A stretch of 64,000 nucleotides of DNA from a virus: the IMG/VR virus record IMGVR_UViG_3300042507_004023; one strand, written 5' to 3'. The position numbers and the translations under genes were made by a program. Position 1 is the first letter of the stretch, and every line of letters starts with the position of its first letter. The notes under the pieces were generated by a model, which was not told the origin of the DNA, searched no databases, and worked only from the letters and a program-made list of their open reading frames with translations. Shown piece after piece: positions 1 to 57,094 of this stretch.

Positions 1-1422
1 AGTTTTACCAGGCACATAAATGCTCTTCGTGTCGGCAAACACGCTTGTTCCACTCATTGAAACATCAAACAAGTCTACACGCCAACGCTGACCTGTTGGG
101 CCTCCCTTGAATTCAATACCTCTAACCTTCGCTGTTCCGATAGGAGCATATGCTCCTGTTGGTGATTTATTTGAACCGAGAATAACGGTTGGGATTCTGT
201 TTAAGTTAAATCCTGTTAAGCCAAGGCTTGGGAAAGATGCGTTCGGATTTAGTTCTGCTAGAACATAAGGGCCAACAACGGAAGAGATGCGAGCATCTTC
301 AAATTCTCGTGTGGCTCTAGCCTTAGGTAGATCAATTTTAGTTACGCCTTGTGTTTCAAATTCATAACCAAAAATATACGCTTTGCCTGCACCGATTTCG
401 GCAACTAAGGTTGCTCCTGTTGCTCCATAAACTCCTTCGCTTATAGAGATTGAAAACGGATCAACAATATAGTTTCCAGATTCATCATAAGTTCTTCTCG
501 CTAGTGTGTCTCCCAACACAGCATATGATGGATATTTTTCTTTCTTGATTGTTGTCCCATCAACAATTCTTATAAATTCAACGAAATCTCGTCTTGAAAA
601 ATTATCTGTTGAAGAGGTGTTGGTTGGACTAAACTGATATTGCGTTATAGCCATTCCAATCTTATAACGATCTGCACCAGGAGCAGAATAGTTATAGAAT
701 CCAAATGATGGATCCTTTAGAGTTTCATCTTCTTCACTAGTAATAAATTCACGACTTACATTAAATCCAACCCGTGATGTTGGATTATCGTAGAGACGAA
801 CTTGAGATCCTGTAGATCCGGTTAGCGAATACGCACCAATTGTTTGCAAATCGTTTGCAACAAAGAATCCGTCAACATAACGAACTCCTGATCCGGCGTT
901 GATAAGAATCGCATTACCTAAAGCGTAACCAGTCACTCCTCCTGAAGTTACTCCAGAGATAACCATAGAAACGCTGCTTCCGTTTGGAGCAGTTCCGCCT
1001 ACCGCTAATCCGTTTGAAAATGCTGTTCCGCCTGAGGTATACTCAAAGAATATGACAGGCATATTGTCTACCGTGCTTGACGACAGACCGCTTTCTGCGT
1101 GAACGATTTTAGCGTTTGCTCTGCCTGATACTGTTAAAACTGATCCGATAGTGTCGGTTATACTCAAAGTTCCCGTTAATCCGGTAACACGAGCATATTT
1201 TACACGGTTTTCAACAACCTCTCCACCTAAAACAATTGATCCTTCTTCAAAAATATTGTCTCCAAATTTCGAGATTTGATTCTGAAGAATGGATTGAAGT
1301 TGTGTGAGTTCACGAGCCTGAATTGCATATCCCGGTCTAAACAACATTCTAAGAAACTTTTTGTTCTGATCGTAATCATCGTAATAAGGATCAACATTAA
1401 AGATGGTTGGATCGTATGTCAT
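1..1422 (-). CDS. DUF4815-type T4-like virion/baseplate structural protein (runs off the window start; partial)
   Basis: Not in the ORF track because no stop lies inside the window. Manual translation from ATG 1422: MTYDPTIFNVDPYYDDYDQNKKFLRMLFRPGYAIQARELTQLQSILQNQISKFG, later AEIGAGKAYIFGYE. AAGGAAA lies upstream; follows gp8. Confidence 0.85.
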   Translation of the reverse strand, partial: MTYDPTIFNVDPYYDDYDQNKKFLRMLFRPGYAIQARELTQLQSILQNQISKFGDNIFEEGSIVLGGEVVENRVKYARVTGLTGTLSITDTIGSVLTVSGRANAKIVHAESGLSSSTVDNMPVIFFEYTSGGTAFSNGLAVGGTAPNGSSVSMVISGVTSGGVTGYALGNAILINAGSGVRYVDGFFVANDLQTIGAYSLTGSTGSQVRLYDNPTSRVGFNVSREFITSEEDETLKDPSFGFYNYSAPGADRYKIGMAITQYQFSPTNTSSTDNFSRRDFVEFIRIVDGTTIKKEKYPSYAVLGDTLARRTYDESGNYIVDPFSISISEGVYGATGATLVAEIGAGKAYIFGYEFETQGVTKIDLPKARATREFEDARISSVVGPYVLAELNPNASFPSLGLTGFNLNRIPTVILGSNKSPTGAYAPIGTAKVRGIEFKGGPTGQRWRVDLFDVSMSGTSVFADTKSIYVPGKT

Positions 1423-9900: not shown

Positions 9901-12900
9901 AGCCCAATAGGAACTCCTGGTCCTGTTGGTGCTCCTGGTCTTAACGCTTCTCCACCAGCAAAATCCCAATATGGCTCAAATCCATAAGAAACGGTTAATG
10001 GATTTAGTTTCCAATCAATAACTGATCCATCGGCTCCAGTAATTTCAATGGTTCTTGGATTTGGAGAACTAATGGCGCATCCCCACTTTTTGGTGTAGGT
10101 ATCGTCTCCAGACCACAGATAGAACCCGTGAACTGAGCCTTTTGGATTACCCGACAAAGAACCTTCAATATACAGATTAACAAATTCTGATGGACTAAAG
10201 AAAGATCCGTCTTGTATTGATGGGGCTACTGCTCCGTATCCGCCACTTCCAGTTCCAACAGTATACGCTTTATTTGAAATGAACGGGATAATTAGCACAT
10301 TATCGTATCCCTTTTCTGCTGCAATTTCTTGCCGCCATTTAACCATTTCGGTTATGGTCAAATTTTGCAGGGCTTTTTCTGCTGCTATATTTTCTGTGGC
10401 AACATAAAAACTAGGCATCCACACATTAACATTTCTTGCATAATTCGTCCATTGTTCTTTCCACAGTTTTAAAGCGTGGTCACGATACTTGGTTCCGAAT
10501 CTAACATCCAAAATACCTAATCCGCTTGCTTTTGATGATTGGGGATCGTTAGTATCCAAAGTATCTCTGCCGTCCCAACGGCAATCGGGGCATGTTGGTG
10601 AAGGCACATAACTCTTATAATCAACGGACTTGCCATCAATTATTCTTGTTAAGGTTTCAAACTTTGAACTTCTAGCGTCTCCACTAAATCCTGGATAATC
10701 GTGATATTTCAAAATGTTTCTTGGAACTGCGTATGGCTGCCCGTAGTTTGCAAACAGGGCGTTTGGAAATTTTTGTTGCAATCCGTCAAAAGTTAGTCCA
10801 TCCGCACCAGTTCCACCAACAAATATCGGAATCATATACTTGTTCATTATAAAATTGCCGACCGAATTTGGATCATCTGGATTTGCTCGTCCTACACTGC
10901 TAGAAAAAATTGGATCCCAGGTTTCATTATTCATTGCGATCAGATTGTCATACTCGAAAGTGTAACGATTATCCCCTAAACGCAAAGTTCCTGCGCCAGA
11001 AATTCCATTCCAGTCTGGCTTAATATCTCCAAGCAAAGACGAGACAAATTTATCCATTGCTGCTTTAGAGGTATTTGTAAGCCCGTGTGTTCCTGCAACT
11101 ATACCTTTAAAAGCACCAACTTTAGGATAATGGCTGCTTGCTTCTGAATCCCAATTTGTGAATCGGTTGTATTGTAGTGTGATGTTATCCGCGTAAGATG
11201 TTTTATCTTCAGAAGTGTCTGAATTATTCAAGTTCTTTGCCAATGGGCTTAAAGAACCAATTGCCTTTACGGTTTGTGTTTCATCAATTCCAATCACTTC
11301 TCCGTTTTCATTTCTCAAGTAATAATCCAAAGTAATATCTGTTCCTGTAGACAGATTTTTTTGAGGGGTTAGATTTGAAACACTCTTGCTATTATCAGTC
11401 TTTAGTTTTTCTAGATCCTTATATCCTTGAAGAGTGAAAACATTATCATAATAAATTTTTGGCAAAAATGCGGATTGTCCTACAAGTTTATTTTGAGGAG
11501 TCAAAAACTCTTGAACAGATTGTGGTTCATAGTAGGTTTGAGTATACGGTTTAACTGGATTGTAATTCAGGGTTACATATCGTTCTCCTGAAGTGAATCC
11601 TGTCGCCCAATCTGTTCGATTTGCGGTGCTACCTTCTGTCCACTCTGCCCAATAGCCAGTATAACCGCTATTATTAGAAGAAATTCCAAAAGGAAACTCT
11701 CTGCCTGCTCCCAAATCATTCAAGAATTCGTTCTTTAGATCGTAAGGAATTCTAGCCGTAACTGAACCACGAATCTTGCGATTCGGGTGCTGATATACGA
11801 TCCAGAAAGGATCTGCGTTTTGAAAGTTTGCTGTTCTCAGAGGAACTAGAGGATTTTGGAATGCTCGGTTAAATGTTACGGGATTTCCTATAGACTTTAA
11901 ATATTCCTTTGAGGAAATTCCATCAAGCCCCGCAAGAGCAACATCACCGAAATCTATTATCCCGTTTTCATCAAGATCATTTCTTATAATCTGATTGTGA
12001 ACTGTTGGATCGTAGCCAGCCAAAAGTCCTGTGTTTGGATCCGTAAACCAGTTTGAAAGATCGTCGTAAGTTTTGAATGTATACGGTGCGTAGTGACCAA
12101 TAATCGGCACTTCGTATTCCACAAGAGATGTGCTGTTCTGCAAATCTGCAACAGCGCAACGCTTAATTTGAACTTTACCAAAGAACGCAAGACCTGCTGG
12201 ATTTAAAAGTCTCTTTAAAACATCACGATAACGATCAACAGTAACTTCACTTAAAATAACATATGAAAAGTTTTGATAGTAATGATTGTCTTGAATAACT
12301 TTATTGGTGCTTAATCTGCCGTCGTTGTTGGCGTAATAACCTTGGTATTCCGCCATTCCATTAACAGTAACAGAACCAACAAATCCGGTTCCTGCTTCAG
12401 ATTCAATTGTTATTGCGGGAGCAACCTTGTAATTAACACCATAATTATCAATCAAAATTTTTCTGATTTTACCCAAAGCGTCAACTTCAGCAACACGAGC
12501 AGAGGCTTTAACACCAGTATCTCCTTCAGCAGAGGCAAAAATAACACGATCTCCTGCTTTATACCCGCTTCCGCCGTTTGTTATTGTGATTTTTCCAATA
12601 ACAGAGAAAACTCGGTTTTCTTTACGCAAAATACCAGTTTTGTCTGTAAATTCTATGCCATCATAGCCTGCCGCAAATTGACCATTTACTCCACCCAAGA
12701 AAAGTTCAGCAATATCATTAGTTCCAACTCGATATGTGCTAACTTCAATGACTCGTCCACTTGCAGCAATATCTCCGTTCGCATCTCGTTGAACTACTGT
12801 TGCGCCAATAGAATCAAAAATAGCATTTCCTATATTGTTACTCGTCTTTATAGAACGACGGACAACCCACTTTCCGTCTGAAAGTTTCATAATATCATTC

Positions 12901-13292
12901 TTGGGATAATAGAATTCTACGGAAGTATCAAACAGAATTCTAAACAAGAAATCGTAGGTTTTTTCGGTTCCTTTTGCTCGGTAAAATCCCTTGATGTTTT
13001 TCATCAATTTTACAGGATCTACAGGCTTTTTGGTTGTCTCGGATACCGCTAGTTTTTCTGGAAACCCAAGAAGATATTCATTCTTAAAATATGAAATGAA
13101 TTCTTCTAGTGTAGAGTCAACATCAATAACGCTAGCAAGTTTCTTTGGAGATCGTAGGAAGGTGTTATCCGAATCTAACCACTCATAGTAAGCCGTAAGA
13201 AAAGCAACCAGAGTTGGATGGTCAACCCTTACAAATTCTGGTAATTGTCCTGCTATGAATGGTGATGTAGGATTAAAGTTTTTGTCTGTCAT
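3930..13292 (-). CDS. gp7: Giant gp7-like baseplate wedge initiator (3120 aa) with large inserted domains and Cys-rich repeats
   Basis: N-terminus QLPEFVRVDHPTLVAFLTAYYEWL...KNIKGFYRAKGTEKTYDFLFRILF and GRLSTNKVIQDNHYYQNFSYVI...LLNPAG match gp7-type proteins; lies between gp6 and gp8; single uninterrupted ORF. Confidence 0.8.
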   Translation of the reverse strand: MTDKNFNPTSPFIAGQLPEFVRVDHPTLVAFLTAYYEWLDSDNTFLRSPKKLASVIDVDSTLEEFISYFKNEYLLGFPEKLAVSETTKKPVDPVKLMKNIKGFYRAKGTEKTYDFLFRILFDTSVEFYYPKNDIMKLSDGKWVVRRSIKTSNNIGNAIFDSIGATVVQRDANGDIAASGRVIEVSTYRVGTNDIAELFLGGVNGQFAAGYDGIEFTDKTGILRKENRVFSVIGKITITNGGSGYKAGDRVIFASAEGDTGVKASARVAEVDALGKIRKILIDNYGVNYKVAPAITIESEAGTGFVGSVTVNGMAEYQGYYANNDGRLSTNKVIQDNHYYQNFSYVILSEVTVDRYRDVLKRLLNPAGLAFFGKVQIKRCAVADLQNSTSLVEYEVPIIGHYAPYTFKTYDDLSNWFTDPNTGLLAGYDPTVHNQIIRNDLDENGIIDFGDVALAGLDGISSKEYLKSIGNPVTFNRAFQNPLVPLRTANFQNADPFWIVYQHPNRKIRGSVTARIPYDLKNEFLNDLGAGREFPFGISSNNSGYTGYWAEWTEGSTANRTDWATGFTSGERYVTLNYNPVKPYTQTYYEPQSVQEFLTPQNKLVGQSAFLPKIYYDNVFTLQGYKDLEKLKTDNSKSVSNLTPQKNLSTGTDITLDYYLRNENGEVIGIDETQTVKAIGSLSPLAKNLNNSDTSEDKTSYADNITLQYNRFTNWDSEASSHYPKVGAFKGIVAGTHGLTNTSKAAMDKFVSSLLGDIKPDWNGISGAGTLRLGDNRYTFEYDNLIAMNNETWDPIFSSSVGRANPDDPNSVGNFIMNKYMIPIFVGGTGADGLTFDGLQQKFPNALFANYGQPYAVPRNILKYHDYPGFSGDARSSKFETLTRIIDGKSVDYKSYVPSPTCPDCRWDGRDTLDTNDPQSSKASGLGILDVRFGTKYRDHALKLWKEQWTNYARNVNVWMPSFYVATENIAAEKALQNLTITEMVKWRQEIAAEKGYDNVLIIPFISNKAYTVGTGSGGYGAVAPSIQDGSFFSPSEFVNLYIEGSLSGNPKGSVHGFYLWSGDDTYTKKWGCAISSPNPRTIEITGADGSVIDWKLNPLTVSYGFEPYWDFAGGEALRPGAPTGPGVPIGLNGKPRVSWLITSGKQGGNPWWGGSLAPVWPTASAPARLTGKTPKTQARMNLLSYEAFLDGMTGQTGAQFVFDKPEKYAYLKTKYPSFFEKTRDLPEWGSIKEYTFRIKKFSANGANSVNLSMAPGTTFAFNYRTVNPLSSTPIRSRDGVGVTGDIISNPLFNSLTGSATVFSYPDGRSYQDKGWNTADRIGYVKRVQAIDANTVEIGVEPFFFVGQPQFTQEAGNDVALWTPAVPFGSRTDTGYWGVDGATHGFTSGNAPYSTCLGASNPVTGDAQLKALDLQKDPSYANQRPRWVNLGFPGDIISFGAIGATFELVSNVSVSGDFPRISKSEVDNVFALTDKINYTQIEAALNYWNQKYNNPKTTDFAFEYDVIGDSWYAYGPGDRIIINGWTPPKPGTSNCSNSVIKPNISVITNDNDGTMEVNYTYTNTCSEEKIIDWLDTPSLNLGDSIEYYDTKLYGATGSPIGTYRTITRNGSVQSARYPDILYSPIHLAKTKFEGACCEQNNFAVSMSVVGYQPEVYGHDISLVVFPPQDNPAVAMSVAANQNYKAYVDRYSFQFATQNESQLYDSAKIPAGETRTYKVVVKFNTIPISQNLIGGKSLIEQDVNLQDAAAFETLSVYKDFLDSKYPHSYIPDYRPVKGVHFGYEHLVNLSSPTASNYNPYGWDTIQTKSAQAGGYPNVVGMSGPVNYVKDQIEKKGWDRVMIWTPSGAAASGNYPVRAVSHWDEPDRIWTTPLGATFSITNNMDDGVSLFKSMIDALDDDKQVGFWFGNSLKYQTEFGGTLYPFGSTGYDDQLILDQLDRVANITINSRGVSKGMIGLDAWHPSNAPNEVSYIGAESIRNSYLSLYEGQIKYVTESRNSDYMHRKDATYLDLFNASNGNRNVTKSFGLANYLTPDHETWVGCNWYSSNDPALRGFGGDPTRANDRDVARGTVIKELIDMGYVPVVFDEIDRAYIFGGDPGPTACTGCDCCQFGCFTLGGLYDCLGCSGCPGCTGCPATGPTCSGPSCCGTTANGNACWNTFLGVYDCEGCSGLGGCTGCPSIPQDPCDSCHPGIPCLNIMTGLLDCEGCSGCFGCTGCGITAPATGCALCSSVNLCHTVDGIYDCAGCSGCHGCTGCPQGPTGATGCNLCRSDAPCWTLSGIYDCEGCSGCFGCLGCTTTTPCIGCECCTGGCFNKATNLYDCEGCSGCFGCTGCGITGVSAGATSCTGSGGTACCGTTGSGTLCYNIVTGIYDCVGCSGFNGCTGCGITGSLTGCALCSQENPCFTIDGFYDCQGCSGCWGCLGCSITGATSCTGCGCCSTSVTGGCYNIVTGLYDCEGCSGCFSCTGCPVTGGCTGCECCLTGGYNRITGLLDCEGCSGCYGFTGCGVTAPATGCDRCSQVNPCFTMDIPTGYDCEGCSGCWQCTGCPVTGPTCSGALCCGTTANGFACWNTFLGVYDCLGCSGFGGCTGCAITGASAGPTGCAACSTWEGLPCYNIVSGMYDCAGCSGCHSCTGCSAVVVDPGCTGCSCCSPIFDCFSITGSYDCAGCSGCYNCEGCKTKYTKCSQCTVADCTVGTLNYDFCVDCGCGTIYTSCEECTQLDCDSITVNTKFCRNTCGCVPTTVLCDECVKNDCNGIRCRTECDECIYDGPGKYTNCNQCLQGDCDYPSSINYEFCVSCGCEQSYTLCSQCTPSDCDNQYSINNSFCRDCGCTPSISCSDCVANGCVSEGCDVCADCPTQQEYDNCGQCLPIDCYAEYRVNHTYCVETCNCELGQTGSTSGETGDNGPILALTTLGSRVDYSEFRKITLRSFLEMPVGPEFNCKDQEVLTPPVPQVKVVTVNGKSVDIPEWSTDTQYVVDSEPGSRSMNIQLDGVLISSGELAGLSTLLYLSYYSAISLWADLSVVDETGKEYQMASVGPFPTSANSINILYPFVNPDNPNSEPGAITLGRGTVGSPFSWRGNQYPNTNCVYRLKLYFRNVSNAIITGSETVKEFNYQLT
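4620..5258 (-). repeat. Coding Cys-rich repeat family II in gp7: 7 modules of 6 Cys
   Basis: Five long modules such as YTKCSQCTVADCTVGTLNYDFCVDCGC and YTNCNQCLQGDCDYPSSINYEFCVSCGC, plus two short ones (LCDECVKNDCNGIRCRTECDEC; SCSDCVANGCVSEGCDVCADC). Confidence 0.9.
5259..6989 (-). repeat. Coding Cys-rich repeat family I in gp7: 14 modules with core [Y/L]DCxGCSGCxxCTGC
   Basis: 14 copies counted in the translation; 120 Cys in 577 aa. Confidence 0.95.
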
Positions 13293-33933: not shown

Positions 33934-33936
33934 GGG

Positions 33937-33964
33937 TTGACACAGAAAAAATCCATGTTACTAT
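33937..33964 (+). promoter_or_regulatory. Sigma70-type early promoter TTGACA-N16-TACTAT with extended -10 TG (rightward)
   Basis: -35 at 33937-33942, -10 at 33959-33964, ATG 9 nt later. Confidence 0.7.
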
Positions 33965-35586: not shown

Positions 35587-35763
35587 ATGGGACGATCTCA
35601 AGATTATAATGAGTGGGAAGACCGTATTTCCCGAAAGAATCGCAAAGCAGAAACTAGAAAAAATCGTAAGCGTGTCAATTCAAATGAACTGATGGAGCGT
35701 TACGGTCGCAACAATGATGACGATGATTTGTATAACGAAGGCGAAAAGTTCCACCATCGTTAA
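35587..35763 (+). CDS. 58-aa basic/acidic small protein (below the ORF-track cutoff)
   Basis: MGRSQDYNEWEDRISRKNRKAETRKNRKRVNSNELMERYGRNNDDDDLYNEGEKFHHR; GGAGG upstream; fills the gap. Confidence 0.65.
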   Translation: MGRSQDYNEWEDRISRKNRKAETRKNRKRVNSNELMERYGRNNDDDDLYNEGEKFHHR

Positions 35764-35770
35764 CTAAATA
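35763..35770 (+). promoter_or_regulatory. Late promoter ACTAAATA for the glycosyltransferase
   Basis: Late motif 35 nt before ATG 35806. Confidence 0.65.
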
Positions 35771-35805
35771 AACGGCTAACGCCACTTACATAAATGGAGA
35801 ATAAA

Positions 35806-36966
35806 ATGGCTGATAATGCTACTGCTAAGAAAAAGGTTTCGTTATGCATGATTGTAAAGAACGAATCCCGAGTTATCGAAAGATGTTTGGCTTCGGTTCT
35901 TCCGGTGATTGATTATTGGGTTATTGTTGATACTGGCTCAACCGATGGAACTCAAGAGAAGATCAAGAAGTTTTTTGATAATGTGGGAATTCCTGGAGAA
36001 CTCCATGAGCGTCCGTGGAAGAACTTTGGACACAATCGTTCCGAGGCTCTTGAACTTGCTCACAAGAACAATGATATTGATTACTGCTTGATGATCGACT
36101 CGGATGAAGTTCTTCAATTTGATCCAGGCTTTGATCCAGATAAGTTCAAGGAAGGGTTGACCGCAGATCTTTATAATGTGTTTGCTTTCTACGGCAATAC
36201 TCGTTACCATCGTCCACAATTGACCAGCAATAAGTTGCGGTATTATTACCGTGGTGTTCTTCACGAGTATGTGGATTGCCATGATGAAGTAAAGACTCGT
36301 GATTTTGCCAAGGGATTCACAAACACTCCTATTCAAGACGGTGCTCGTTCTCAGAATCCAACCAAGTATGCGGACGATGCCAAGATGTTTGAAGAAGCCT
36401 TGAAGGGCGAGGTTGATCCTAAGGATTTCAATCGTTACCACTTCTACCTAGCACAGTCATACCGTGACTCGCAGCAATGGGAAAAGTCTCTTGAAGCATA
36501 CCTCAAGAGAGCAAATCTTGGCGGATGGAACGAGGAAGTGTTTTATAGCCTGTTCCAAGTTGGCAGAATTCGTGAAATTCTAAAGCACTCAATTGATGAT
36601 ATTGTGGCTTCATACTGGCAAGCCTATCAGATTGCTCCGTGGAGAGCGGAAAGTCTTTGGGCTGCTGCACGAGTTTGTCGTATCGCAGGCAGATTCGATC
36701 AGGCTTACCGCTTCTCCAAGCAGGCGGTAAAGATCAAATATCCTGAAGGTGCTCTGTTTGTGGCACAGCCTGTATACGATTGGATGATTCTAGACGAATA
36801 CGCTATTGCCGCTTATTGGACAGAAAACTATCGTGAGGCACGAAATGCTTCCATGAAACTCCTTCAGGAGGGTAAGTTCCCGCCAGATCAGAAGGAAAGA
36901 CTAGAAGCAAATCTTAAATTTTCTACCGAGGCTATCGTCAATCAAAGCGAAACCGTCACGGCTTGA
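35806..36966 (+). CDS. Family-2 glycosyltransferase with C-terminal TPR repeats
   Basis: VSLCMIVKNESRVIERCLASV...IVDTGSTDGT, DxD motif IDSDE, YRGVLHEY, TPR-like helices (FYLAQSYRD, YSLFQVGRIRE, RAESLWAAARVCR). Start set at the second ATG (GGAG 6 nt upstream). Confidence 0.92.
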   Translation: MADNATAKKKVSLCMIVKNESRVIERCLASVLPVIDYWVIVDTGSTDGTQEKIKKFFDNVGIPGELHERPWKNFGHNRSEALELAHKNNDIDYCLMIDSDEVLQFDPGFDPDKFKEGLTADLYNVFAFYGNTRYHRPQLTSNKLRYYYRGVLHEYVDCHDEVKTRDFAKGFTNTPIQDGARSQNPTKYADDAKMFEEALKGEVDPKDFNRYHFYLAQSYRDSQQWEKSLEAYLKRANLGGWNEEVFYSLFQVGRIREILKHSIDDIVASYWQAYQIAPWRAESLWAAARVCRIAGRFDQAYRFSKQAVKIKYPEGALFVAQPVYDWMILDEYAIAAYWTENYREARNASMKLLQEGKFPPDQKERLEANLKFSTEAIVNQSETVTA

Positions 36967-36988
36967 TTTAAATCTAAAATCAGTAAAG

Positions 36989-37018
36989 AAGCGACTCTTC
37001 CGGGTCGCTTTTTTATTT
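36989..37018 (+). terminator. Intrinsic terminator after the glycosyltransferase
   Basis: Stem AAGCGACTC/GGGTCGCTT (one G-U), loop TTCC, then TTTTATTT. Confidence 0.85.
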
Positions 37019-37035
37019 TGCCACTTATGAATCGT

Positions 37036-37043
37036 GCTAAATA
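37036..37043 (+). promoter_or_regulatory. Late promoter GCTAAATA for fibre-neck-terminase genes
   Basis: Directly after the terminator, 32 nt before ATG 37076. Confidence 0.7.
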
Positions 37044-37075: not shown

Positions 37076-40000
37076 ATGCCAAATTTTAGATCAAATCGTT
37101 ATTACAACACGATCTATATTCAGCCCACTCCCAACGAAGTCGGCTTAAGTGATATCTACACCCAACCTGGTCACGGGCTAGAGCCTGGAACCGCTGTATA
37201 TCTTGACTCTGCTAGCGGCAATCTGTTGCCCGCTATCGCATCCTCTTTGACAAGATCCACAGTTTTAGGCATTGTTCAATCTGTTAACGGCAATGATGTA
37301 ACAGTCGTTTACCAAGGGGAAGTTACATTTCCGGCAGGAGCAACCTCTAATGTAACCAGTTTCCCTCTGTTAACAGGCAACACCTACTATCTGTCTGCCT
37401 CTGTAACAGGCGGTATTACTGCGGGATACAACACCACAGTTTCAAGCATTATTAAACCGTTACTGATTCCTGTTTCAGGATATCAGGGTGTAATTGTAAA
37501 TTCACTACCTCTGTCATCAGCACCATTGGTTTCTCTGTTTACCCCAGTTGGTAGCATTGTTCCCTACACAGGTGGTGGTTCAAATCTGCCAGAAGGTTGG
37601 TTGTTGTGTGCAGGTGATGCATTATCTAAAGCGTCACAAGATCCACCGTATTCCACACTTTACGATATTATCGGTGAGAAGTATGGAGTTCTAGGCGTTT
37701 CTGTATCTTCAACCACAGGAAATACTGCCTACATTCGATTTGATGGCTCGGTTGATGATCCGCCAGCATCAGGCCCCGGATCTACAAAAAATCACAGCAT
37801 TGAAAACAACGATGTTTTCAAGATGATTTGGGGTTCCAATGAAACTGTTGTTCAGGCTTATTCTGCAACAGGCACAACTCATAATGTAACCTTTAAATAC
37901 CTTGCAGCGGTTACTGGTAGCACATCATTCAATTCGCTAGGTGACGGCACAGAGATTACCCTAAAGGCATTGGTGAATGGAGAAGCCGCAGGATACACAT
38001 CCGATAAATTCTTCATCCCCGATTTGAGAGGTCGTGTTGCTATAGGAGCAGGCAAGGGTCGTGGATTGTCGAGCCGTAATGTGGGCGTGTTTGGTGGTGA
38101 AGAAACTCACACATTGACCAATGCGGAACTTCCTTCCCACTCTCACAACATACAACTTTTGAATTCAGAAGGAATTTCTGGAACGGCTTCATACCTGTTA
38201 AGCATAACGGGTGGTGTTGGAACAGTGCAAGCCACTCTATCTTCTTTCCCGCAAGGTCAGCCTGTGGTCAGCAGTGCTACAGGTGGAGCAGAAGATCACG
38301 AGAACATGTCTCCATTCTTGACCACGAATTGGATTATTCGGTATCGCTCTAGCGCAGGTCAAGCAGGTATTGAAGTTGGGCCTCAAGGCAAAGCAGGTGT
38401 AACTGGTGCTCAAGGCATTCAAGGTGTAACTGGCTCTAGGGGTGCTACCGGTGGAACTGGCTACGCTTTAGGTGCAATGCACTACACTTACACAACTGTT
38501 ACTAATGTGCCACCAGGATATTTTAACCCGTTTGTAACCACGGGTGTTGTGGACACTTCATCTGGAACTCCCGTAGTCACTTTTACTCCAAACATTGTGA
38601 TTAGTGCAAACGAATACTACGGAGCGGAAGTTGGCAACTATATTGTAGCCTCGATGAGTAACAACAATTCGCAACGACAAGCACTTGCAATTGTTCGTTC
38701 CATGAGAGATCCAAGCGGCTTCTTTGGTGTTTACGCTCTCAAGAATCCGTATACAGTTGTAAGTCTTACAGGGCCCGATGCTGTTCCCGCCCCGTCAACA
38801 GATACTCCTCCTCCAGCGGCACAATACGATCCTGCCGCAGGAATCAGTTACTATCGTTTACCAATCAAGGCAACTCTTGCGGCAAGTGGAAATTATGTGG
38901 CAGGAGAAATGTATTCCATAATTCTTGTTCCTAGTGCAAGTGATGGCTCGCCAGGAGCAAAAGGTGCAACTGGAGCCAGAGGCGCAACAGGCGAAAGTGT
39001 TAATGCCGGACTTTTAACTTATTATTATGCTGGAGACCAACTTTTAGACTTGGGCGCAAGTGGACAACCTGGAGATAAAGGCATTCTTTCATATTATACT
39101 AATGGATCTTGGTTCTTTACTAATAAAGACTACTTTGGAAATGATGCTTCTTCATTGTTTGAAACAATTGGTCAAGCAAATCTTTATCAAACTTCTTCGG
39201 GTATAACTGGAACAAGGCAGAGAAACGGTGTTCAGATGACTATTCGCTCATTGAGCGAAACTGGATCTCGATATCTACAAACTTTCTACCTTAGTGGAAA
39301 TTATGTTAAAAACACCACTAGTCCTGGAGGAACTGCTTACTACATGTTGGAAGGAAATCCAGGCTCAACCGCTTCAGGTAGTGCTGGTGGATTGCTTCCA
39401 GGAACTTTGTATGGTATTTCTCTTAATCCAATGGCGATTAAAGATGGAACAGGATACAAACAAGACGGAAGTGAAACTACGATTGTAATTACAGACGATA
39501 CTGGAGTTGATGTGGATTCTGCTGTGGCAGATGATGATAGCACTGTTATATCTGAACTCGCAGCATCTGATCCGCTAACATATCAGTATCCGTATGGAGC
39601 ATCTAAAGATATTGCAGAACCTACAAGTGGCCCAAGTCTGTTTAACGCGATGGAAGGATCATATTCTTCTCGCAGATTTAACAGTTTAAGCACATCTCCA
39701 GTTTGGGCTCAGTTGTCTGTTAAAAATTCATTCAACTATAATCTATCCTTGACTTCTCAGCCGTGTGGTGGCAATTGCCAAGGTGGAAGTGGTTACATTG
39801 CTCTTTGTGATATTGTTCGTGATCCTGATGTGGGAAATTACTACACTGCACCCCGAGCAACAAACATTCTTTTGGCTAAAACTTCAGCAAACACGGTTAT
39901 AGATTCAAATGTAACTCAAGTTGTTGACGGTTGCTCGGTAAACATCTACGGAGGAACTGGCGCGTATTTCTCCAAAGTTCCTGTCGGAATTTCTGCAAAT

Positions 40001-41182
40001 TATATGAATACAGGCGGAGAAACTGGCAGAAACACCTTGGTGGTTGATGTTTACATGAACACCAACAATGTTGTGGCTGGAAACTACATTGGTATTCGTC
40101 CAGAATACTTTAATCTTGCTCTAACAGCAGATGCAACCGGACATCAATCTCTTGCTGGAATTTACAAAGTAGACTCTGTTTCTACCGATAAAGTTCGTGT
40201 CCACACTAGTGTTCCGTTTGGAGCAAGTGGTTCGTCTGTTTTCACAGGATACATTACTGGTGGAATTAGTGGCGATTTTAATCGAGTAGATGTGTATACC
40301 GTATCAGTAAATTTCAAAGACTGTTCGGGATACATTGTAAATTCTGGTGAACTTACACTAGGATTATCTTCTTACGGATTGCCTTTCGTAGTCTCGTTCG
40401 AGGGAACCACTTCTGATTCTCAAACAGCAAAGGCAATAAGTGTTATTAACTCTGGATTTGTAGAAGTTGGAGAAAATGTGGCATTCTACGGATGGCCCGC
40501 ATATGGAGCCGCACTCTATGCGGCATCATCAGGAAATTTAAAGGCAGATAATCCAATCGTATCAAAATGCGGGCATGCCGTTGTTGCGAAAGATGGTGGA
40601 GTTATTGATATTGCCAACCCAATATTAACAGCAAACACATACGGAATGTATTCAAGAAGTGGTGGGTCAATACATGTTATGAATTTTGGTAACAGTCCAT
40701 CTTTTACAACAGTAGTAAACAATGCTGTTATGGGAGTTCTTGATAGTGGTATAATTGAAATCGAAGACAGTAGAGCAAATCTAATGTCCAACAGATTCCA
40801 ATCTGGATTCTACTTCGGAGGAAACTCTAGTTTCTTTGCAGGCGCAGGCCCAGAGTCAGCGGGATTGACTGGAGCAACTGGATTGAGTTCAATCTTTACT
40901 AGTTCTACAGGTGGAGCAACAGGCACAAGTGGAAACACTGGTGGATCTAGTTTCTTTATACCATCTCCTGATTCCGCTGGAGAAGCAGAACTAACTTATG
41001 GATTTGGTGTTGTTGGAGTTAGTCAAACAGGCAACTCTTCACTTCGTGCTTCCACAAAAAACACAACTTCAGGAGTGAATCGTCAAATATACACAAGTCC
41101 AATAGTTGCTGGCGCTAAAGCCCCAAATTTTGGATTCCCAAGAATAGGTGTAGTAAATCCACCAATAGAAGGCAATTATTGA
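37076..41182 (+). CDS. Tail fibre / collar-domain fibre protein (1368 aa) with collagen-like segments
   Basis: Tail-collar motifs PVGSIVPY..LPEGWLLCAG, FFIPDLRGRVAIGAG, GGEETHTLT.AELPSHSH, HENMSPF; G-x-y triplets at 38378-38458 and 38945-38998; beta-helix-like C-terminal part. Confidence 0.82.
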   Translation: MPNFRSNRYYNTIYIQPTPNEVGLSDIYTQPGHGLEPGTAVYLDSASGNLLPAIASSLTRSTVLGIVQSVNGNDVTVVYQGEVTFPAGATSNVTSFPLLTGNTYYLSASVTGGITAGYNTTVSSIIKPLLIPVSGYQGVIVNSLPLSSAPLVSLFTPVGSIVPYTGGGSNLPEGWLLCAGDALSKASQDPPYSTLYDIIGEKYGVLGVSVSSTTGNTAYIRFDGSVDDPPASGPGSTKNHSIENNDVFKMIWGSNETVVQAYSATGTTHNVTFKYLAAVTGSTSFNSLGDGTEITLKALVNGEAAGYTSDKFFIPDLRGRVAIGAGKGRGLSSRNVGVFGGEETHTLTNAELPSHSHNIQLLNSEGISGTASYLLSITGGVGTVQATLSSFPQGQPVVSSATGGAEDHENMSPFLTTNWIIRYRSSAGQAGIEVGPQGKAGVTGAQGIQGVTGSRGATGGTGYALGAMHYTYTTVTNVPPGYFNPFVTTGVVDTSSGTPVVTFTPNIVISANEYYGAEVGNYIVASMSNNNSQRQALAIVRSMRDPSGFFGVYALKNPYTVVSLTGPDAVPAPSTDTPPPAAQYDPAAGISYYRLPIKATLAASGNYVAGEMYSIILVPSASDGSPGAKGATGARGATGESVNAGLLTYYYAGDQLLDLGASGQPGDKGILSYYTNGSWFFTNKDYFGNDASSLFETIGQANLYQTSSGITGTRQRNGVQMTIRSLSETGSRYLQTFYLSGNYVKNTTSPGGTAYYMLEGNPGSTASGSAGGLLPGTLYGISLNPMAIKDGTGYKQDGSETTIVITDDTGVDVDSAVADDDSTVISELAASDPLTYQYPYGASKDIAEPTSGPSLFNAMEGSYSSRRFNSLSTSPVWAQLSVKNSFNYNLSLTSQPCGGNCQGGSGYIALCDIVRDPDVGNYYTAPRATNILLAKTSANTVIDSNVTQVVDGCSVNIYGGTGAYFSKVPVGISANYMNTGGETGRNTLVVDVYMNTNNVVAGNYIGIRPEYFNLALTADATGHQSLAGIYKVDSVSTDKVRVHTSVPFGASGSSVFTGYITGGISGDFNRVDVYTVSVNFKDCSGYIVNSGELTLGLSSYGLPFVVSFEGTTSDSQTAKAISVINSGFVEVGENVAFYGWPAYGAALYAASSGNLKADNPIVSKCGHAVVAKDGGVIDIANPILTANTYGMYSRSGGSIHVMNFGNSPSFTTVVNNAVMGVLDSGIIEIEDSRANLMSNRFQSGFYFGGNSSFFAGAGPESAGLTGATGLSSIFTSSTGGATGTSGNTGGSSFFIPSPDSAGEAELTYGFGVVGVSQTGNSSLRASTKNTTSGVNRQIYTSPIVAGAKAPNFGFPRIGVVNPPIEGNY

Positions 41183-43361: not shown

Positions 43362-44195
43362 ATGCTAGAACACTTTTACCATCAAACGATTCGTAAAGTT
43401 GTAGTAGCATTCGGTGCGTTATTTAACGATATCTACATCTCTAGACTTGACGATAATAACGCTGAAGTGGAACGAATTAAAGTTCCTATTGGTTACGGCC
43501 CACAGCAAAAGTTTATTCGTCGTCTTGCTAGAATTGGGACAGATTTTGATGCAAATAAGGTTCGCATTGAAAACTATTTGCCTCGTTTATCCTTTGAAAT
43601 TGCAAACATCTCTTACGATCCTAATCGTAAATTAAATCCATTAAATCGAACTGTTTTGTATAAAAATGCTTCAACTGTAAAAAGCAGATACGAAAAGGTT
43701 CCGTATAACATGGATATAAATCTTGGAATTATGACCAAGAATACTGAAGATGCTCTACAGATCATGGAACAGATTCTGCCGTATTTCCAACCAGAATACA
43801 CGGTTTCTATTCGCATGAATGATATAGATCAAAATGTAAACATTCCAATTGTGTTTAAGAGTTGCAACATAGGCGAAGGCGATGATGGTTCTTATGGTGG
43901 ATACGATCTTCGTAAACTGACTTACGCATCCATGATCTTTACGGCTAAACTATACTTGTATGGCCCAATCAGCGATGTGGGAGTCATCACAGATACCGGT
44001 GGCGTAAGTCTTGGTGCAGGGCCATCATCAGTTTCAGGATCTTTGAGTGGAATAAACATTATGATTGGCATACCAAATGGCCCAACTGCTGCAAACATTC
44101 GAGTGTATCCAAACACAGGAGTTACTGCGGGTTCGTATGTTCCTGAAGGCCCAACAGCACAACACCAAATTACAGAATTCCCCGGCAACGGGTGA
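43362..44195 (+). CDS. gp15: Tail sheath stabiliser / terminator gp15
   Basis: FYHQTIRKVVVAFGALFNDI; KVPIGYGP.QKF; LPRLSFE; QIMEQILPYFQP; KLYLYGP. Confidence 0.95.
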   Translation: MLEHFYHQTIRKVVVAFGALFNDIYISRLDDNNAEVERIKVPIGYGPQQKFIRRLARIGTDFDANKVRIENYLPRLSFEIANISYDPNRKLNPLNRTVLYKNASTVKSRYEKVPYNMDINLGIMTKNTEDALQIMEQILPYFQPEYTVSIRMNDIDQNVNIPIVFKSCNIGEGDDGSYGGYDLRKLTYASMIFTAKLYLYGPISDVGVITDTGGVSLGAGPSSVSGSLSGINIMIGIPNGPTAANIRVYPNTGVTAGSYVPEGPTAQHQITEFPGNG

Positions 44196-46458: not shown

Positions 46459-48201
46459 ATGGCATTCCAATTAAGTCCTGGCGTAAATGTAACTGAAAAA
46501 GATCTAACCACAATCGTTCCTGCTGTAGCAACAACCTCGGCAGGTATGGCTGGCTTGTTTGAGTGGGGCCCTGTAGGGCTTCCCGTTCTTGTCAGCACCG
46601 TTCAAGAACTAGGTGCTCTTTACGGCTTACCTAGAGAATCAAACTATGAGTGGTGGTTTACTGCTTATAACTATCTCGGATACGGTAATAATCTTAAAGT
46701 TGTTCGCTGTGTTGACGAAGGCGCAACAGGTGCTAAGAACGCAACCCCAAGTGGTCTAACCGCAGCACTAGTAAAAGTTCCTTCAGATGCAGAAAGCATT
46801 GTTCCAGGCACAAACGGTTCATTCATGGCTCGTTATGCTGGTGAACTAGGAAACTCGCTATGGGTTGATCTTTGCGGTGGAGCAACCAGTGGTGGCGCAG
46901 GTGCAACATTCGGTTCTTGGACATTCAAGAGCCTGTTCGGTGTTACGCCAACCCAAACCTCTTACGCAGATCGTCTAGGTCTAAGCGGATCAAACGATGC
47001 ATTCCACCTTGTTGTGGTGGATAAAGACGGTAAGTTTAGCGGAGCCCCTGGAACTGTTCTAGAGCGTTACGAAAATGTTTCAATCATTCCTGGTGCAGTA
47101 AACTCGGATGGAACTTCTTTGTTCTACAAGAGCAAGATTAATGCCGAATCGCGTTACATTGTAACCACAGGTAGTTTGGCTGCATTTGACGGAACCACAT
47201 TTGCCACAGGATTCACCGCAGGTGGAACAAGCGTAGTTGCCTTCACCAAGTCTGGTGATAACTACACCTCGGGCGGTGCATATTACGCCAAGATGAACGG
47301 CGGAACCGGTCAATTCTCGGGCGCAAGTGATATTGTAGGAAAGATTGACAACGGATTCGAGGCTTTCTCTGATCCTGACAAGGTTGATGTTGCTCTGCTT
47401 CTTGGTGGCCCACTAAGCGGCAATCAAGCACAGCAATTGTGCGATATCGCCAAGGCTCGTAAGGATTGCGTAGCCTTTGTTTCTACTCCAAATAAGAATT
47501 CCGCAGACAGTTCTTCAACCAAGTTGGCAAACTGCTCAACTCTAAGAACTGCTGTTGGTAACAACAACTACGCATTCATCGACAGCGGTTACAAATACAT
47601 GTATGATCCGTTCAACGATGTGTATCGCTATGTTCCGCTGAACGGTGATACCGCAGGGTTGTGCGTCAGAACCGACATCACAAACGATCCTTGGTGGTCG
47701 CCAGCAGGCTTCAACCGTGGTCAAGTTCGTAATGTTGTAAAGTTGGCATTCAATCCAAGCAAGGCTGAACGCGACACAATTTATTCAAACGGAGTTAACC
47801 CTGTTGTTACCTTCTCGGGCGAAGGAACTGTGTTGTTCGGTGACAAGACTGCACAAACAAGACCATCGGCTTTCGACCGTATCAATGTTCGTCGTCTGTT
47901 CATCGTGCTTGAGAAGGCGATTGCAACCGCTGCCAAGTATAGCCTGTTCGAATTCAATGATGCATTCACCCGAGCCCAATTCAAGTCGCTAGTAGAACCA
48001 TTCCTACGCGATGTTCAGGCTCGTCGTGGCATCACCGATTTCAAGGTTGTATGCGATGAGAAGAATAACACACCACAAGTTATCGACAGCAACAACTTTG
48101 TTGCCGACATCTATGTGAAGCCAAATCGTAGCATCAACTTCATTCAGTTGAACTTTGTTGCTACCAAGACAGGCGTTTCGTTCGAAGAAGTAGGAGCCTA
48201 A
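46459..48201 (+). CDS. gp18: Tail sheath protein gp18
   Basis: MAFQLSPGVNVTEKDLT; WWSPAGFNRG; FDRINVRRLF; KPNRSINFIQLNFVA. Confidence 0.98.
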   Translation: MAFQLSPGVNVTEKDLTTIVPAVATTSAGMAGLFEWGPVGLPVLVSTVQELGALYGLPRESNYEWWFTAYNYLGYGNNLKVVRCVDEGATGAKNATPSGLTAALVKVPSDAESIVPGTNGSFMARYAGELGNSLWVDLCGGATSGGAGATFGSWTFKSLFGVTPTQTSYADRLGLSGSNDAFHLVVVDKDGKFSGAPGTVLERYENVSIIPGAVNSDGTSLFYKSKINAESRYIVTTGSLAAFDGTTFATGFTAGGTSVVAFTKSGDNYTSGGAYYAKMNGGTGQFSGASDIVGKIDNGFEAFSDPDKVDVALLLGGPLSGNQAQQLCDIAKARKDCVAFVSTPNKNSADSSSTKLANCSTLRTAVGNNNYAFIDSGYKYMYDPFNDVYRYVPLNGDTAGLCVRTDITNDPWWSPAGFNRGQVRNVVKLAFNPSKAERDTIYSNGVNPVVTFSGEGTVLFGDKTAQTRPSAFDRINVRRLFIVLEKAIATAAKYSLFEFNDAFTRAQFKSLVEPFLRDVQARRGITDFKVVCDEKNNTPQVIDSNNFVADIYVKPNRSINFIQLNFVATKTGVSFEEVGA

Positions 48202-53897: not shown

Positions 53898-55310
53898 ATG
53901 GAACTCACTATCTCAGAAGCCCTACAGAGCAAGTGGAAGCCAGTGCTTGAGCACCCAGAACTTCCCGACATCTCTGATCCATACCGCAAGGCGGTAACAA
54001 CGATTCTCTTGGAGAATCAGCAGCAATATCTACGCGAAGATGGCCCATCAAACATCGGCTCGAACCTTGACGGTGGCGTAGCCGGTGGCAACTCAAATGT
54101 TGCTCGTTGGGATCCAATCCTCATTTCGCTCGTTCGTCGTGCAATGCCAAATCTCATTGCTTACGATGTATGCGGCGTTCAACCAATGAGTGGCCCAACC
54201 GGTCTTATCTTTGCTCTACGCAGCCGTTACAACAACCAGTTCGGTGACGAAGCCCTATTCCAAGAAGCCAACAGCCGCTTCTCAGGTAAGGCTGCTACCG
54301 GTCTAACTGGCGCAGGTCTCGGTCAAACCGCAAACTTCGGTGGCGTAACCGCAACTGATACTGATCCGTTCTATAACGGTGTCAACGCTGGTTTCACCGC
54401 AGGTAACTTCGGTCTAGATCCAAACGGCGACCCATTCTTGGGCACAGCAATGTCAACCAACACAGGCGAAGCCCTTGGTTATCCAAACGGTTCACAAGCC
54501 TCAGGCTCACAGTTTGCACAAATGGCATTCTCAATCGAGAAGACCACTGTGACTGCTCAGACCCGTGCGTTGAAGGCAGAATACACAATGGAATTGGCAC
54601 AAGATCTTAAGGCTATCCACGGTCTTGACGCTGAAACCGAACTCGCCAACATCTTGTCGAGTGAAATTCTTGCCGAAATCAACCGCGAAGTCGTTCGTCG
54701 CATCTATGTGTCAGCCAAGTTGGGTGCTCGCTCAGGTCTAACTCAGACCACAGGCGTGTTCGACTTGAATGTTGACTCGAACGGTCGTTGGTCAGTCGAG
54801 AAGTTCAAGGGTCTGCTCTTCCAAATGGAGCGCGAGTGCAATCAAATTGCCAAGGAAACCCGTCGTGGTAAGGGTAACTTCGTCCTCTGCTCGGCAGATG
54901 TGGCAAGTGCTCTAAGCATGGCAGGCGTTCTTGACTACGCTCCAGCCCTCTCAACCAACCTCAATGTTGACGATACAGGCAACACCTTCGCTGGTGTTCT
55001 CAACGGTCGTCTCCGCGTCTACATCGACCCATACGCTTCACAGACAGCAACTCACGAGTTCTTCTGCGTTGGCTATAAGGGTTCGAGTCCATACGATGCT
55101 GGTCTCTTCTACTGCCCATATGTTCCTCTACAAATGGTTCGTGCAGTTGGCGAGAACTCGTTCCAGCCAAAGATCGGATTCAAGACTCGTTACGGTCTAA
55201 TCCACAATCCATTCGTATTGAACTCAAGCGGTCAGGTAACAAGCGATCTCGATGCTACAGTTCGTCGCAACATGTATTATCGTATCGTCAAGGTCACAAA
55301 CCTCTTCTGA
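53898..55310 (+). CDS. gp23: Major capsid protein gp23
   Basis: DPILISLVRRAMPNLIAYDVCGVQPMSGPTGLIFALR; ALKAEYTMELAQDLKAIHGLDAETELANILS.EI.AEINRE; GRWSVEKFKG; FQPKIGFKTRYG. Confidence 0.99.
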   Translation: MELTISEALQSKWKPVLEHPELPDISDPYRKAVTTILLENQQQYLREDGPSNIGSNLDGGVAGGNSNVARWDPILISLVRRAMPNLIAYDVCGVQPMSGPTGLIFALRSRYNNQFGDEALFQEANSRFSGKAATGLTGAGLGQTANFGGVTATDTDPFYNGVNAGFTAGNFGLDPNGDPFLGTAMSTNTGEALGYPNGSQASGSQFAQMAFSIEKTTVTAQTRALKAEYTMELAQDLKAIHGLDAETELANILSSEILAEINREVVRRIYVSAKLGARSGLTQTTGVFDLNVDSNGRWSVEKFKGLLFQMERECNQIAKETRRGKGNFVLCSADVASALSMAGVLDYAPALSTNLNVDDTGNTFAGVLNGRLRVYIDPYASQTATHEFFCVGYKGSSPYDAGLFYCPYVPLQMVRAVGENSFQPKIGFKTRYGLIHNPFVLNSSGQVTSDLDATVRRNMYYRIVKVTNLF

Positions 55311-55465: not shown

Positions 55466-57094
55466 ATGGCAGTCTATTATTGGAAGGGATCAACAGGCGG
55501 AACTGCAAGCAATTATGCTTGGAATGTTCCTCAAAACTGGGTTAAAGTCGTAAAACCAAATCCATATTCATCGTTTTCTTACTTTGTTGGAGCAACCAAT
55601 TCTGTTCCATCAGGTGGCGATGATGTGTATATTGGTGGATTTATTACGGGCCCAACCTGTGTGTCGCCGCTAGTTTACGGTGGATACTCAGGTTCTGGTA
55701 ACACGGGTTCTTGGATTTCAAATATCGGAGGAACCGGCGCAACAACTGCACAAGGTCAACTCAATTCGCTTGTTGTTGGTTGGCAAACTGGTGCTACAGG
55801 CAAATATCCATTTACAACTATTGGTGGTGGTAAGACCATAGTTTGGGATATGACTGGCTCAAATTTCAGCATAGGTGTGGTTGGCACAATGACTCCTGGA
55901 CTAACACCAGACAGTCTTGTGGGAACTTACTATGATACCTTGACTGTTTTGGCTAAAAACACTTACGAAACTTCTTCAAGTGTTGGTGATACCATTAACA
56001 GTGTGGACGCAAACCCATACACAATCAAATTAAATTACGCTCTAGGTTCTACTGCATTTTCATCAAATTTGTTTACAAACACAGTAATCAAAGGAGCAAG
56101 ATCTTTAATTGGTCTTCCAATTCAGGCTTGTGGTTGGGAAGACGGAGGATCATCTAGCAAATCCAAGATGATTCTTTCTGGTTATTTGAATAAAGTTCAA
56201 GACTTGTCTGCTCCATGCCAAACCTATTGGATGTCTGGACAAACTAATTTTGGTTCTCCAATGGTTTACTTCCAAGGTTGCACATTCGCAGAGTATCAAG
56301 GCAATAATCATTGCACTCTAGTGCTTGATGAAAATTCAACTGCGGCACTGATTTCAATTAATTCTTGGTTTAATTATCCAAGTAATGTTTTGGGTAAGTA
56401 TCCATATCACTACATTAAAGGAGAAATTAACGCATCTAAAGCGTTAGCAGTATTTGGTTTAACTGGTGGTGTAACTGGCGCAGGAAAAGGAACTTTGTCC
56501 GTTAATGCAGATTGGTATTCAAATATTGGATGGCAATATGAAGGTGTGTGGGAAAACAGTCCTTTAAATAACAGCACTAGACAAGAGTGCGGGTTTATTA
56601 TCCTTAGTGGTGACGATTGGAGTGGTGTTACAGGCAACACTCGTATAGGTGAAATATTAGTTAGAGGTGGCAATCCAGTTGATGGTGACGGCGGAACTCC
56701 TTGGAATTTTGCATCACAATCAAACAAGCCTATCTTGATGGTTAAGCGAGGAACTGTTATAGGTTCTGCAAATATGGAATATGGCGAAATGTTTGGGCAT
56801 GATGCTCCAAATTCTCCAGCGTCTGTTGGTCAGTTGGTTATGTCTAGAGACTCTACACTTTGGACAAATTCAATGGCTTGGCAGTTTGGCGTTACCGCAG
56901 GAGCAACAGGAGCCACCGCAATCGTTGGTGGTATATTCGGTGATACCACTACTTGGATTCGTATGAGTGACGGCGTTCAATTGTTCAACAAGAATCTTGC
57001 TAGAACATTCAAGAACACTACTTATAGTGCAGTCAACTTTAGCATCAACGATGTCACTCTTGAACCTGATACCATGAGAAAAGAAGCACTATAA
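55466..57094 (+). CDS. Orphan Gly/Thr-rich beta-structured probable virion protein (paralog A)
   Basis: N-terminal YYWKGSTGG...YAWNVPQNW; own late promoter and terminator; directly after gp23. Confidence 0.75.
   Translation: MAVYYWKGSTGGTASNYAWNVPQNWVKVVKPNPYSSFSYFVGATNSVPSGGDDVYIGGFITGPTCVSPLVYGGYSGSGNTGSWISNIGGTGATTAQGQLNSLVVGWQTGATGKYPFTTIGGGKTIVWDMTGSNFSIGVVGTMTPGLTPDSLVGTYYDTLTVLAKNTYETSSSVGDTINSVDANPYTIKLNYALGSTAFSSNLFTNTVIKGARSLIGLPIQACGWEDGGSSSKSKMILSGYLNKVQDLSAPCQTYWMSGQTNFGSPMVYFQGCTFAEYQGNNHCTLVLDENSTAALISINSWFNYPSNVLGKYPYHYIKGEINASKALAVFGLTGGVTGAGKGTLSVNADWYSNIGWQYEGVWENSPLNNSTRQECGFIILSGDDWSGVTGNTRIGEILVRGGNPVDGDGGTPWNFASQSNKPILMVKRGTVIGSANMEYGEMFGHDAPNSPASVGQLVMSRDSTLWTNSMAWQFGVTAGATGATAIVGGIFGDTTTWIRMSDGVQLFNKNLARTFKNTTYSAVNFSINDVTLEPDTMRKEAL

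Follow-up and report, generated by a model that had tools for sequence, protein, structure and literature searches.

The 64,000-nucleotide stretch of viral DNA analysed here (IMG/VR record IMGVR_UViG_3300042507_004023, hereafter the window) carries a gene for a glycosyltransferase (GT) in which a GT2 domain is joined to a tetratricopeptide repeat (TPR)-like domain. The window is a portion of the genome of an uncultured T4-like myovirus, as judged from its Pfam and PHROG gene content. We consider it likely that this enzyme is a late soluble protein O-glycosyltransferase whose acceptors are Gly-x-Thr (G-x-T) sites in the phage's own structural proteins. In the mechanism we propose, a soluble, late-expressed, metal-dependent enzyme of the GT-A fold would take a host nucleotide sugar as donor and, with its C-terminal TPR-like domain holding an extended Gly-rich peptide, would O-glycosylate Thr, and perhaps also Ser, in G-x-T-[G/A] sites, in the cytoplasm and before or during assembly. 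The most secure target would be the collagen-like portion of the fibre whose gene comes next downstream, much as SgtA of C. difficile acts on BclA3. Further probable targets would be the sites scattered over variable regions of the capsid, sheath, neck and baseplate proteins and of orphan late proteins, and the outcome would be a sugar-decorated virion. What the enzyme does, which sugar it uses, where it attaches that sugar and what the phage gains (protection, masking or adsorption) are inferred. Our confidence is highest for the adjacent fibre, whose glycosylation by this enzyme is probable, and lower for the proteins of capsid, sheath, neck and baseplate; a coat of glycans over the whole virion is plausible.

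A preliminary description of this gene, made from the DNA letters, had recognised a GT2 domain (SLCMIVKNE, DTGSTD, DSD) together with TPRs, and both assignments hold. The translated ORF at 35794-36966 contains VSLCMIVKNES, VDTGSTDGT and MIDSDEV, scores above the cut-offs of Pfam PF00535 (GT2; 37.8 bits vs 23.3, residues 16-108) and PF13704 (30.5 bits vs 27.5), and is matched over its full length by PHROG 13126 (E 1.4e-29). The Pfam evidence for TPRs is weak (TPR_12, E 0.0068), but in an AlphaFold (AF2) model built on 39 homologues (pLDDT 95.5) the ten-helix C-terminal domain matches the peptide-binding TPRs of Sgt2, CHIP and Hop at Z 15-17 over residues 242-390. Among these 39 homologues, which extend down to 38% identity, the invariant residues of the GT-A domain are E24, D46-T-G-S-x-D51, D102-x-D104 (the DxD motif, D102-S-D104 in the phage enzyme) and H157-E158, and those of the TPR-like domain are D195, R214, Y218, E248, E286, R296, E335 and N373. 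The TPR-like domain is presumed, from the model, to be the module that binds the acceptor peptide. Neither an N-terminal hydrophobic segment nor a membrane segment was seen in the translation, and the enzyme is predicted to be soluble.

The closest solved relatives of the enzyme act on peptides or proteins. Its best full-length fold matches are SunS (Z 21.7, 279 residues) and ThuS (Z 20.6, 314 residues), with Foldseek E values of 7e-15 to 1e-13, and by sequence the solved structure that matches best is the GmaR GT domain (E 1.1e-8, residues 14-110), followed by SunS. Thus, of the two kinds of relatives that had been set against each other at the outset, protein GTs and DNA glucosyltransferases, the former are nearest, and the latter are absent among the sequence and fold matches listed. 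Glucosylation of hydroxymethyl-pyrimidines in the phage DNA, as a protection against restriction, would follow a precedent for which T4-like phages are the classic case, and the literature often gives phage GTs such a role. Yet the enzyme combines a GT-A fold with TPRs, its gene lies in the morphogenesis module with a late-type box ahead of it, and homologues are widespread in bacteria beside surface-protein genes, all of which makes action on DNA highly improbable.

The same relatives bring another kind of substrate into view, namely a peptide or protein outside the virion, either a small secreted glycopeptide as for SunS or a host protein, for instance flagellin, as for GmaR. The small ORF of 58 aa that lies directly upstream of the GT gene (35588-35763) could be read in this sense. 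This ORF, however, lacks Cys and is highly charged, and no Cys-containing glycocin precursor and no glycocin export or maturation genes were found near the GT gene, whose neighbours are structural. In addition, the SunS-family model TIGR04195, albeit the top NCBIfam match of the enzyme, scores 28.8 bits against a cut-off of 350, and the genes to which the family is linked encode G-x-T proteins. We therefore regard a non-virion target as very unlikely.

The usual annotation of such a gene would be modification of a host envelope glycan (O-chain of lipopolysaccharide (LPS), capsule or cell wall), for instance as a bar to superinfection, and phage GTs in fibre regions are routinely read as modifiers of DNA or host LPS. 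Database names such as 'beta-1,4-glycosyltransferase' and 'glycosyltransferase involved in cell wall biosynthesis' agree with this annotation, as does the published interpretation that GTs in the tail-fibre region of pelagimyophages modify the host O-chain (PMC7029224). Taken by itself, the GT-A domain is similar to TarS, TarP and RmlT (model residues 13-182 match the teichoic-acid and O-antigen GT-A enzymes TarS and WrtF at Z 15-16), and bacterial homologues are fused to GT25 'LPS' domains. Against this stand the absence of a membrane segment from the soluble enzyme, the TPR-like domain, the peptide GTs that are its full-length fold relatives, the late box within a structural module, and a linkage to genes for G-x-T proteins that is tight and genome-wide specific. 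In the light of these features the host-glycan annotation fits poorly and is very unlikely; DNA glucosylation fits worse.

The family to which the enzyme belongs is large. A profile search returned 16,438 representatives at E <0.001, 3,139 of them at E <1e-30, and more than 7,000 close homologues occur in metagenomes, some on contigs of up to 177 kb. In many bacterial members the same 370-aa unit is fused to GT25, Anp1-like, GDSL, sulfotransferase or FkbM methyltransferase domains, and these fusions fit enzymes that start and then elaborate a glycan.

The GT gene looks like a late transcription unit of its own, since it has its own CTAAATA box and terminator hairpin (Table 1), as the preliminary description had proposed. 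The late promoter of T4 is TATAAATA, and by analogy with it we infer that CTAAATA serves as a late promoter in this phage. The window contains 16 copies of the heptamer where 9.35 are expected, a number that 4 of 100 shuffles reached. As this total is only mildly above chance, the argument for a late box rests on position: 11 of the 16 copies lie in sense orientation 12-61 nt upstream of structural genes, among them those for the fibre, gp13, gp18, gp19 and gp22, and the box of the GT gene is thus common to 10 other structural genes. The stop codon is followed by a 16-bp hairpin that none of 200 shuffles equalled in stability; a simple consensus terminator scan missed this hairpin, and folding revealed it. 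Translation probably starts at the second ATG of the ORF (35806), because a GGAG box lies 6 nt ahead of it and the N-termini of close homologues begin at the equivalent position.

In 55 IMG/VR relatives the GT gene is found on the same strand and in the same slot, before (fibre)-gp13-gp14-gp15-gp17-gp18, and its product is 56-91% identical across them, often better conserved than gp15 or gp18. By this conserved position and its late-type box it would be classed as a gene of the T4-like late structural module. The fibre that adjoins it diverges fast among the relatives, and in some a short Collar protein takes its place. In the window, as had been noted beforehand, the GT gene immediately precedes a fibre with G-x-T-rich collagen-like repeats, which occupy residues 434-465 and 624-641; the whole fibre contains 17 G-x-T-[G/A] motifs, compared with 3.5 expected.

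The pairing of this enzyme with G-x-T proteins extends far beyond T4-like phages. We fetched by profile a sample of 80 bacterial loci, each around a GT homologue, from Alpha-, Beta- and Gammaproteobacteria, Streptomyces, Myxococcota, Chlamydiota, Bacteroidota, Acidobacteriota, Planctomycetota and Cyanobacteriota (no Clostridia were kept), and scored as a partner any ORF with at least 8 G-x-T triplets in collagen-like runs within 10 kb of the homologue. Such a (G-x-T)n ORF was present in 42 of the loci, at a median distance of 375 bp and within 1 kb in 29. In a background control with five whole genomes, 408 of the 417 matches to (GGNNNNACN)x5 fell inside the 21-kb GT loci. On the chromosome of Bradyrhizobium sp. 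26S5, for example, an ORF of 1891 aa (L004 3294-8966, minus strand), uncalled in the gene index, contains about 480 consecutive G-[A/S]-T triplets; it is divergent from, and about 1 kb away from, a GT homologue of 1882 aa with TPR, GT2-TPR unit, Anp1-like, GDSL and GT25 domains. On the E. coli plasmid pRT18-1_294k_tetX (L265 2594-7212) an autotransporter carries a collagen-like linker of 45 G-x-T triplets between its passenger and barrel, and 108 bp after it comes a GT homologue with 36% identity to the phage enzyme; plasmids of Enterobacter and Citrobacter show this pairing too. The plasmid-borne autotransporter is a candidate glycosylated protein. Two unrelated cultured phages also have a GT-collagen pairing. 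In Tunturiibacter phage Tunturi_5 the tail fibre gp29, with 110 collagen triplets of which 66 contain Thr, is encoded 3.7 kb from the GT gene, and in DSL-LC01, a freshwater Actinomycetia phage, the operon of the GT includes four GPT-collagen genes. In this last phage the GT homologue stands at the end of the operon (L177 18445-21089) and overlaps the end of an annotated tryptophan halogenase gene; a second GT and a UDP-galactopyranose mutase are encoded 6-8 kb away. The distant homologues on Bacillus cereus-group plasmids (about 23% identity) have no collagen-like ORF within 6 kb, nor does that of Bacillus sp. N5-665; these members give the pairing no support.

Within the window the motif is not confined to collagen-like runs. 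With per-protein shuffling as the control, G-x-T-[G/A] occurs 102 times where 21.8 are expected, and the excess lies only in virion proteins (gp7-like, gp8-like, DUF4815, fibre, gp15, gp18, gp23 and two orphans); early and replication proteins of the window show none. Ranked against all 8000 gapped a.bc patterns, G.TG takes second place (71 vs 11.1 expected, z 17), outranked only by a Cys repeat of gp7, and G.TA and G.SG come next. Most of the G-x-T-[G/A] sites are isolated and lie outside collagen runs, and when these runs are masked the ratio of observed to expected is still 4.05 for the window and 2.6-4.5 in five loci of GT-carrying relatives. By comparison, it is 0.6-1.5 in six T4-like phages that lack the GT (two cyanophages and phages of E. 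coli, Acinetobacter, Ralstonia and Rhizobium). In gp15 the variable C-terminal tail changes in sequence from one member of the clade to another but keeps its motif positions, and these are absent in the GT-lacking phages. The co-occurrence of GT and G-x-T enrichment that the preliminary description had put forward as a check is thus seen at two levels, as pairing in bacterial loci, plasmids and unrelated phages and as dispersed enrichment in phages with the GT and not in the six without it.

A more restricted account is that the enzyme glycosylates only true (G-x-T)n fibre segments, and that the dispersed sites are unrelated structural motifs with no virion-wide coat. We hold this to be doubtful, while giving it real weight. 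All bacterial partners are long collagen-like runs, the enrichment vanishes on masking of collagen runs in Tunturi_5 and in loci L164, L169 and L171, and the numbers of motifs in gp23 vary among relatives. Opposed to it are the masked enrichment itself, about 4-fold in the window and similar in most clade relatives compared with about 1 in the GT-lacking phages, and the relative L118, which has no adjoining long fibre and keeps both the GT and the dispersed enrichment. Furthermore, a short peptide with one Thr or Ser suffices as a substrate of SgtA (PMC7157674). Of the earlier proposal that the GT modifies capsid, sheath, baseplate and fibres, modification of the fibre is probable, and the virion-wide part is less secure, depending as it does on a motif statistic of a single clade.

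Several observations weigh against our preferred reading, that a late enzyme glycosylates G-x-T sites of the phage's own structural proteins. The late timing of the GT is read from a promoter-like box. The architecture that the phage enzyme has in common with SgtA could be convergent. Some relatives retain the GT without an adjoining long fibre; in L102, L107, L112-L114, L118, L133, L138-L140 and L170 the long fibre is absent or replaced by a short Collar-domain protein, and the GT is kept at about 70% identity. No G-x-T ORF was found within 10 kb in 38 of the 80 bacterial loci or in about 10 of 25 non-T4 viral loci, many of these contigs being short. One GT-carrying relative, L116, shows little dispersed enrichment (1.4), and motif counts in gp23 differ widely among relatives; the gp23 counts come from 80 relatives on short contigs, which makes them uninformative for co-occurrence with the GT, and three wrong-gene ORFs were excluded from the gp23 alignment. 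Most other viral lineages lose the enrichment once collagen runs are masked, and the virion-wide pattern is therefore a feature of one clade, so that the idea of dispersed sites rests on a single phylogenetic contrast.

In its boldest form, the proposal is that a widespread uncultured clade of aquatic T4-like phages practises virion-wide O-glycosylation, in which one late GT2-TPR enzyme acts on a G-x-T-[G/A] sequon seeded in exposed variable regions to give a glycan-shielded particle, and that the family as a whole represents a general, largely unrecognised bacterial and viral system for Gly-x-Thr surface proteins. We advance this tentatively, rating it somewhat short of an even chance. If it is true, the fibre and capsid surfaces of very abundant environmental T4-like phages carry glycans, and these would bear on adsorption, resistance to proteases and aggregation, and on how host defences or grazers recognise the particles. 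Likewise, hundreds of bacterial collagen-like surface proteins, including the plasmid-borne autotransporters, would be likely glycoproteins with a dedicated enzyme, and a compact peptide tag for O-glycosylation could serve glyco-engineering. The hypothesis can be tested concretely and cheaply with one enzyme, a four-residue sequon and defined peptides.

Table 1. Positions of the glycosyltransferase gene, its signals and domains, the adjoining fibre, and other genes of the window with G-x-T-[G/A] motifs
Feature	Position	Strand	Basis or remarks
GT2-TPR glycosyltransferase gene	35794..36966	+	390 aa; likely true start ATG 35806
Late-promoter-like CTAAATA box of GT gene	35764..35770	+	Heptamer 30-36 nt before start
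Putative intrinsic terminator of GT gene (hairpin and U run)	36982..37017	+	dG -19.9 kcal/mol, z -6.41
GT-A catalytic domain, residues 14-182	35833..36339	+	Model and invariant columns in 39-sequence alignment A1
TPR-like helical domain, residues 190-390	36361..36963	+	Ten helices in model
CTAAATA box of fibre gene	37037..37043	+	Heptamer search
Collar-domain fibre, most likely substrate	37076..41182	+	1368 aa; Pfam Collar and tail-fibre PHROGs
Collagen-like segment 1 of fibre, residues 434-465	38375..38470	+	Ten G-x-y triplets, Thr at several y positions
Collagen-like segment 2 of fibre, residues 624-641	38945..38998	+	Sequence read
C-terminal G-x-T cluster of fibre, residues 1263-1290	40862..40945	+	Motif map
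DUF4815 structural protein, cut by window edge	1..1422	-	8 G-x-T-[G/A] vs 0.9 expected
gp8-like baseplate wedge protein	1438..3912	-	6 G-x-T-[G/A] vs 0.9 expected
gp7-like baseplate protein	3930..13292	-	3120 aa; 33 G-x-T-[G/A] vs 4.9 expected; candidate further substrate
gp15 tail-sheath stabiliser	43362..44195	+	3 G-x-T-[G/A] in variable C-terminal tail, positions retained in GT-carrying relatives
gp18 sheath	46459..48201	+	5 G-x-T-[G/A] vs 1.0 expected
gp23 major capsid protein	53898..55310	+	5 G-x-T-[G/A] vs 0.6 expected; 4 within one variable loop, residues 135-168
Orphan late gene	55466..57094	+	12 G-x-T-[G/A] vs 1.5 expected
Paralogous orphan late gene	60295..62037	+	6 G-x-T-[G/A] vs 1.2 expected

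The surroundings of the GT gene in the window are T4-like. Downstream lie the genes for gp13, gp14, gp15, both terminase subunits, sheath, tube, portal, prohead protease, scaffold and gp23, and upstream, on the other strand, those for the gp5-, gp6-, gp7- and gp8-like baseplate proteins. A comparison of the window DNA with 50,697 phage records gave zero nucleotide matches, and the nearest cultured phages are cyanomyoviruses, with about 40% identity on gp15. The 58-aa ORF is located between a DUF6433 gene and the GT gene; it has a GGAGG ribosome site, a Lys/Arg-rich centre and an Asp-rich end, and its stop codon abuts the CTAAATA box of the GT gene. At 33906-33964 there are divergent near-consensus sigma-70-like promoters (minus strand TTGACA-16-TATATT; plus strand TTGACA-16-TACTAT with a TG), which mark the border between early leftward genes and the rightward block that runs to the GT gene. 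The gp7-like protein contains about 20 Cys-rich repeats of the form YDCxGCSGC...GCTGC, and its C.GC pattern (49 vs 1.0 expected) is the top of all the gapped patterns. S-glycosylation of these repeats (GCSGC / GCTGC) on the model of SunS was weighed as a further idea and not adopted. The two late orphan genes are paralogues that flank the UvsW region, and neither has a Pfam or PHROG match.

In our literature searches virion glycosylation of phages was found in mycobacteriophages only, with none for T4-like phages or for collagen-like phage fibres, in agreement with the earlier remark that no described T4-like example was known. The alpha- and beta-glucosyltransferases of T4 are GT-B enzymes. 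Like the GT studied here they are encoded by T4-like phages, but unlike it they are expressed early and act on DNA, and they are absent among the matches listed for the phage enzyme. The mycobacteriophage precedent that the preliminary description had named is matched by the accounts in two citing papers, according to which mycobacteriophage GTs add glycans to capsid and tail-tube proteins of the phages that encode them (Freeman et al. 2023, cited in PMC12619734 and PMC12801897). As described there, these are actinobacteriophage siphoviruses, unlike the phage of the window, with glycans at subunit C-termini, and the portions of the citing papers that concern them mention neither a collagen-like or G-x-T sequon nor a TPR enzyme.

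Among enzymes of similar architecture, SunS and ThuS (PDB 7msn, 7msp, 7msk) likewise consist of GT-A followed by TPR-like helices, which in their case recognise the peptide substrate; their identity to the phage enzyme is 14-16%, and they S-glycosylate Cys of a small bacteriocin. GmaR of Listeria, a flagellin O-GlcNAc transferase and an anti-repressor of MogR, resembles the phage enzyme in its GT2 plus TPR architecture and in acting on protein (PMC9638930); it differs in its flagellin substrate and regulatory role, which have no bearing on a module of phage structural genes, and the alignment is limited to the first 100 residues.

The biochemical precedent is SgtA of Clostridioides difficile, and here the earlier statement on BclA3, a collagen-like glycoprotein of the exosporium, is borne out by the literature. 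SgtA is a protein of 358 aa with GT-A and four TPRs, whose gene lies directly upstream of bclA3, and the recombinant enzyme transfers beta-O-GlcNAc from UDP-GlcNAc onto Thr, and also Ser, of collagen-repeat (GPT) peptides in a Mn2+-dependent manner (PMC7157674). SgtA and the phage enzyme are alike in size (about 360-390 aa), in being soluble and in having the GT-A domain at the N-terminus and the TPR domain at the C-terminus, and in both cases the GT gene is directly upstream of a gene with Gly-x-Thr collagen-like repeats. The GT-A domain is about 170 aa in the phage enzyme compared with the 260 reported for SgtA, and the phage helical domain is longer. The phage gene, unlike sgtA, belongs to the late structural module of a T4-like phage, and where SgtA acts on a protein of the spore surface, the presumed substrate of the phage enzyme is a tail or neck fibre. 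A further difference from the SgtA/BclA3 system is that the phage has G-x-T-[G/A] sites dispersed outside collagen runs.

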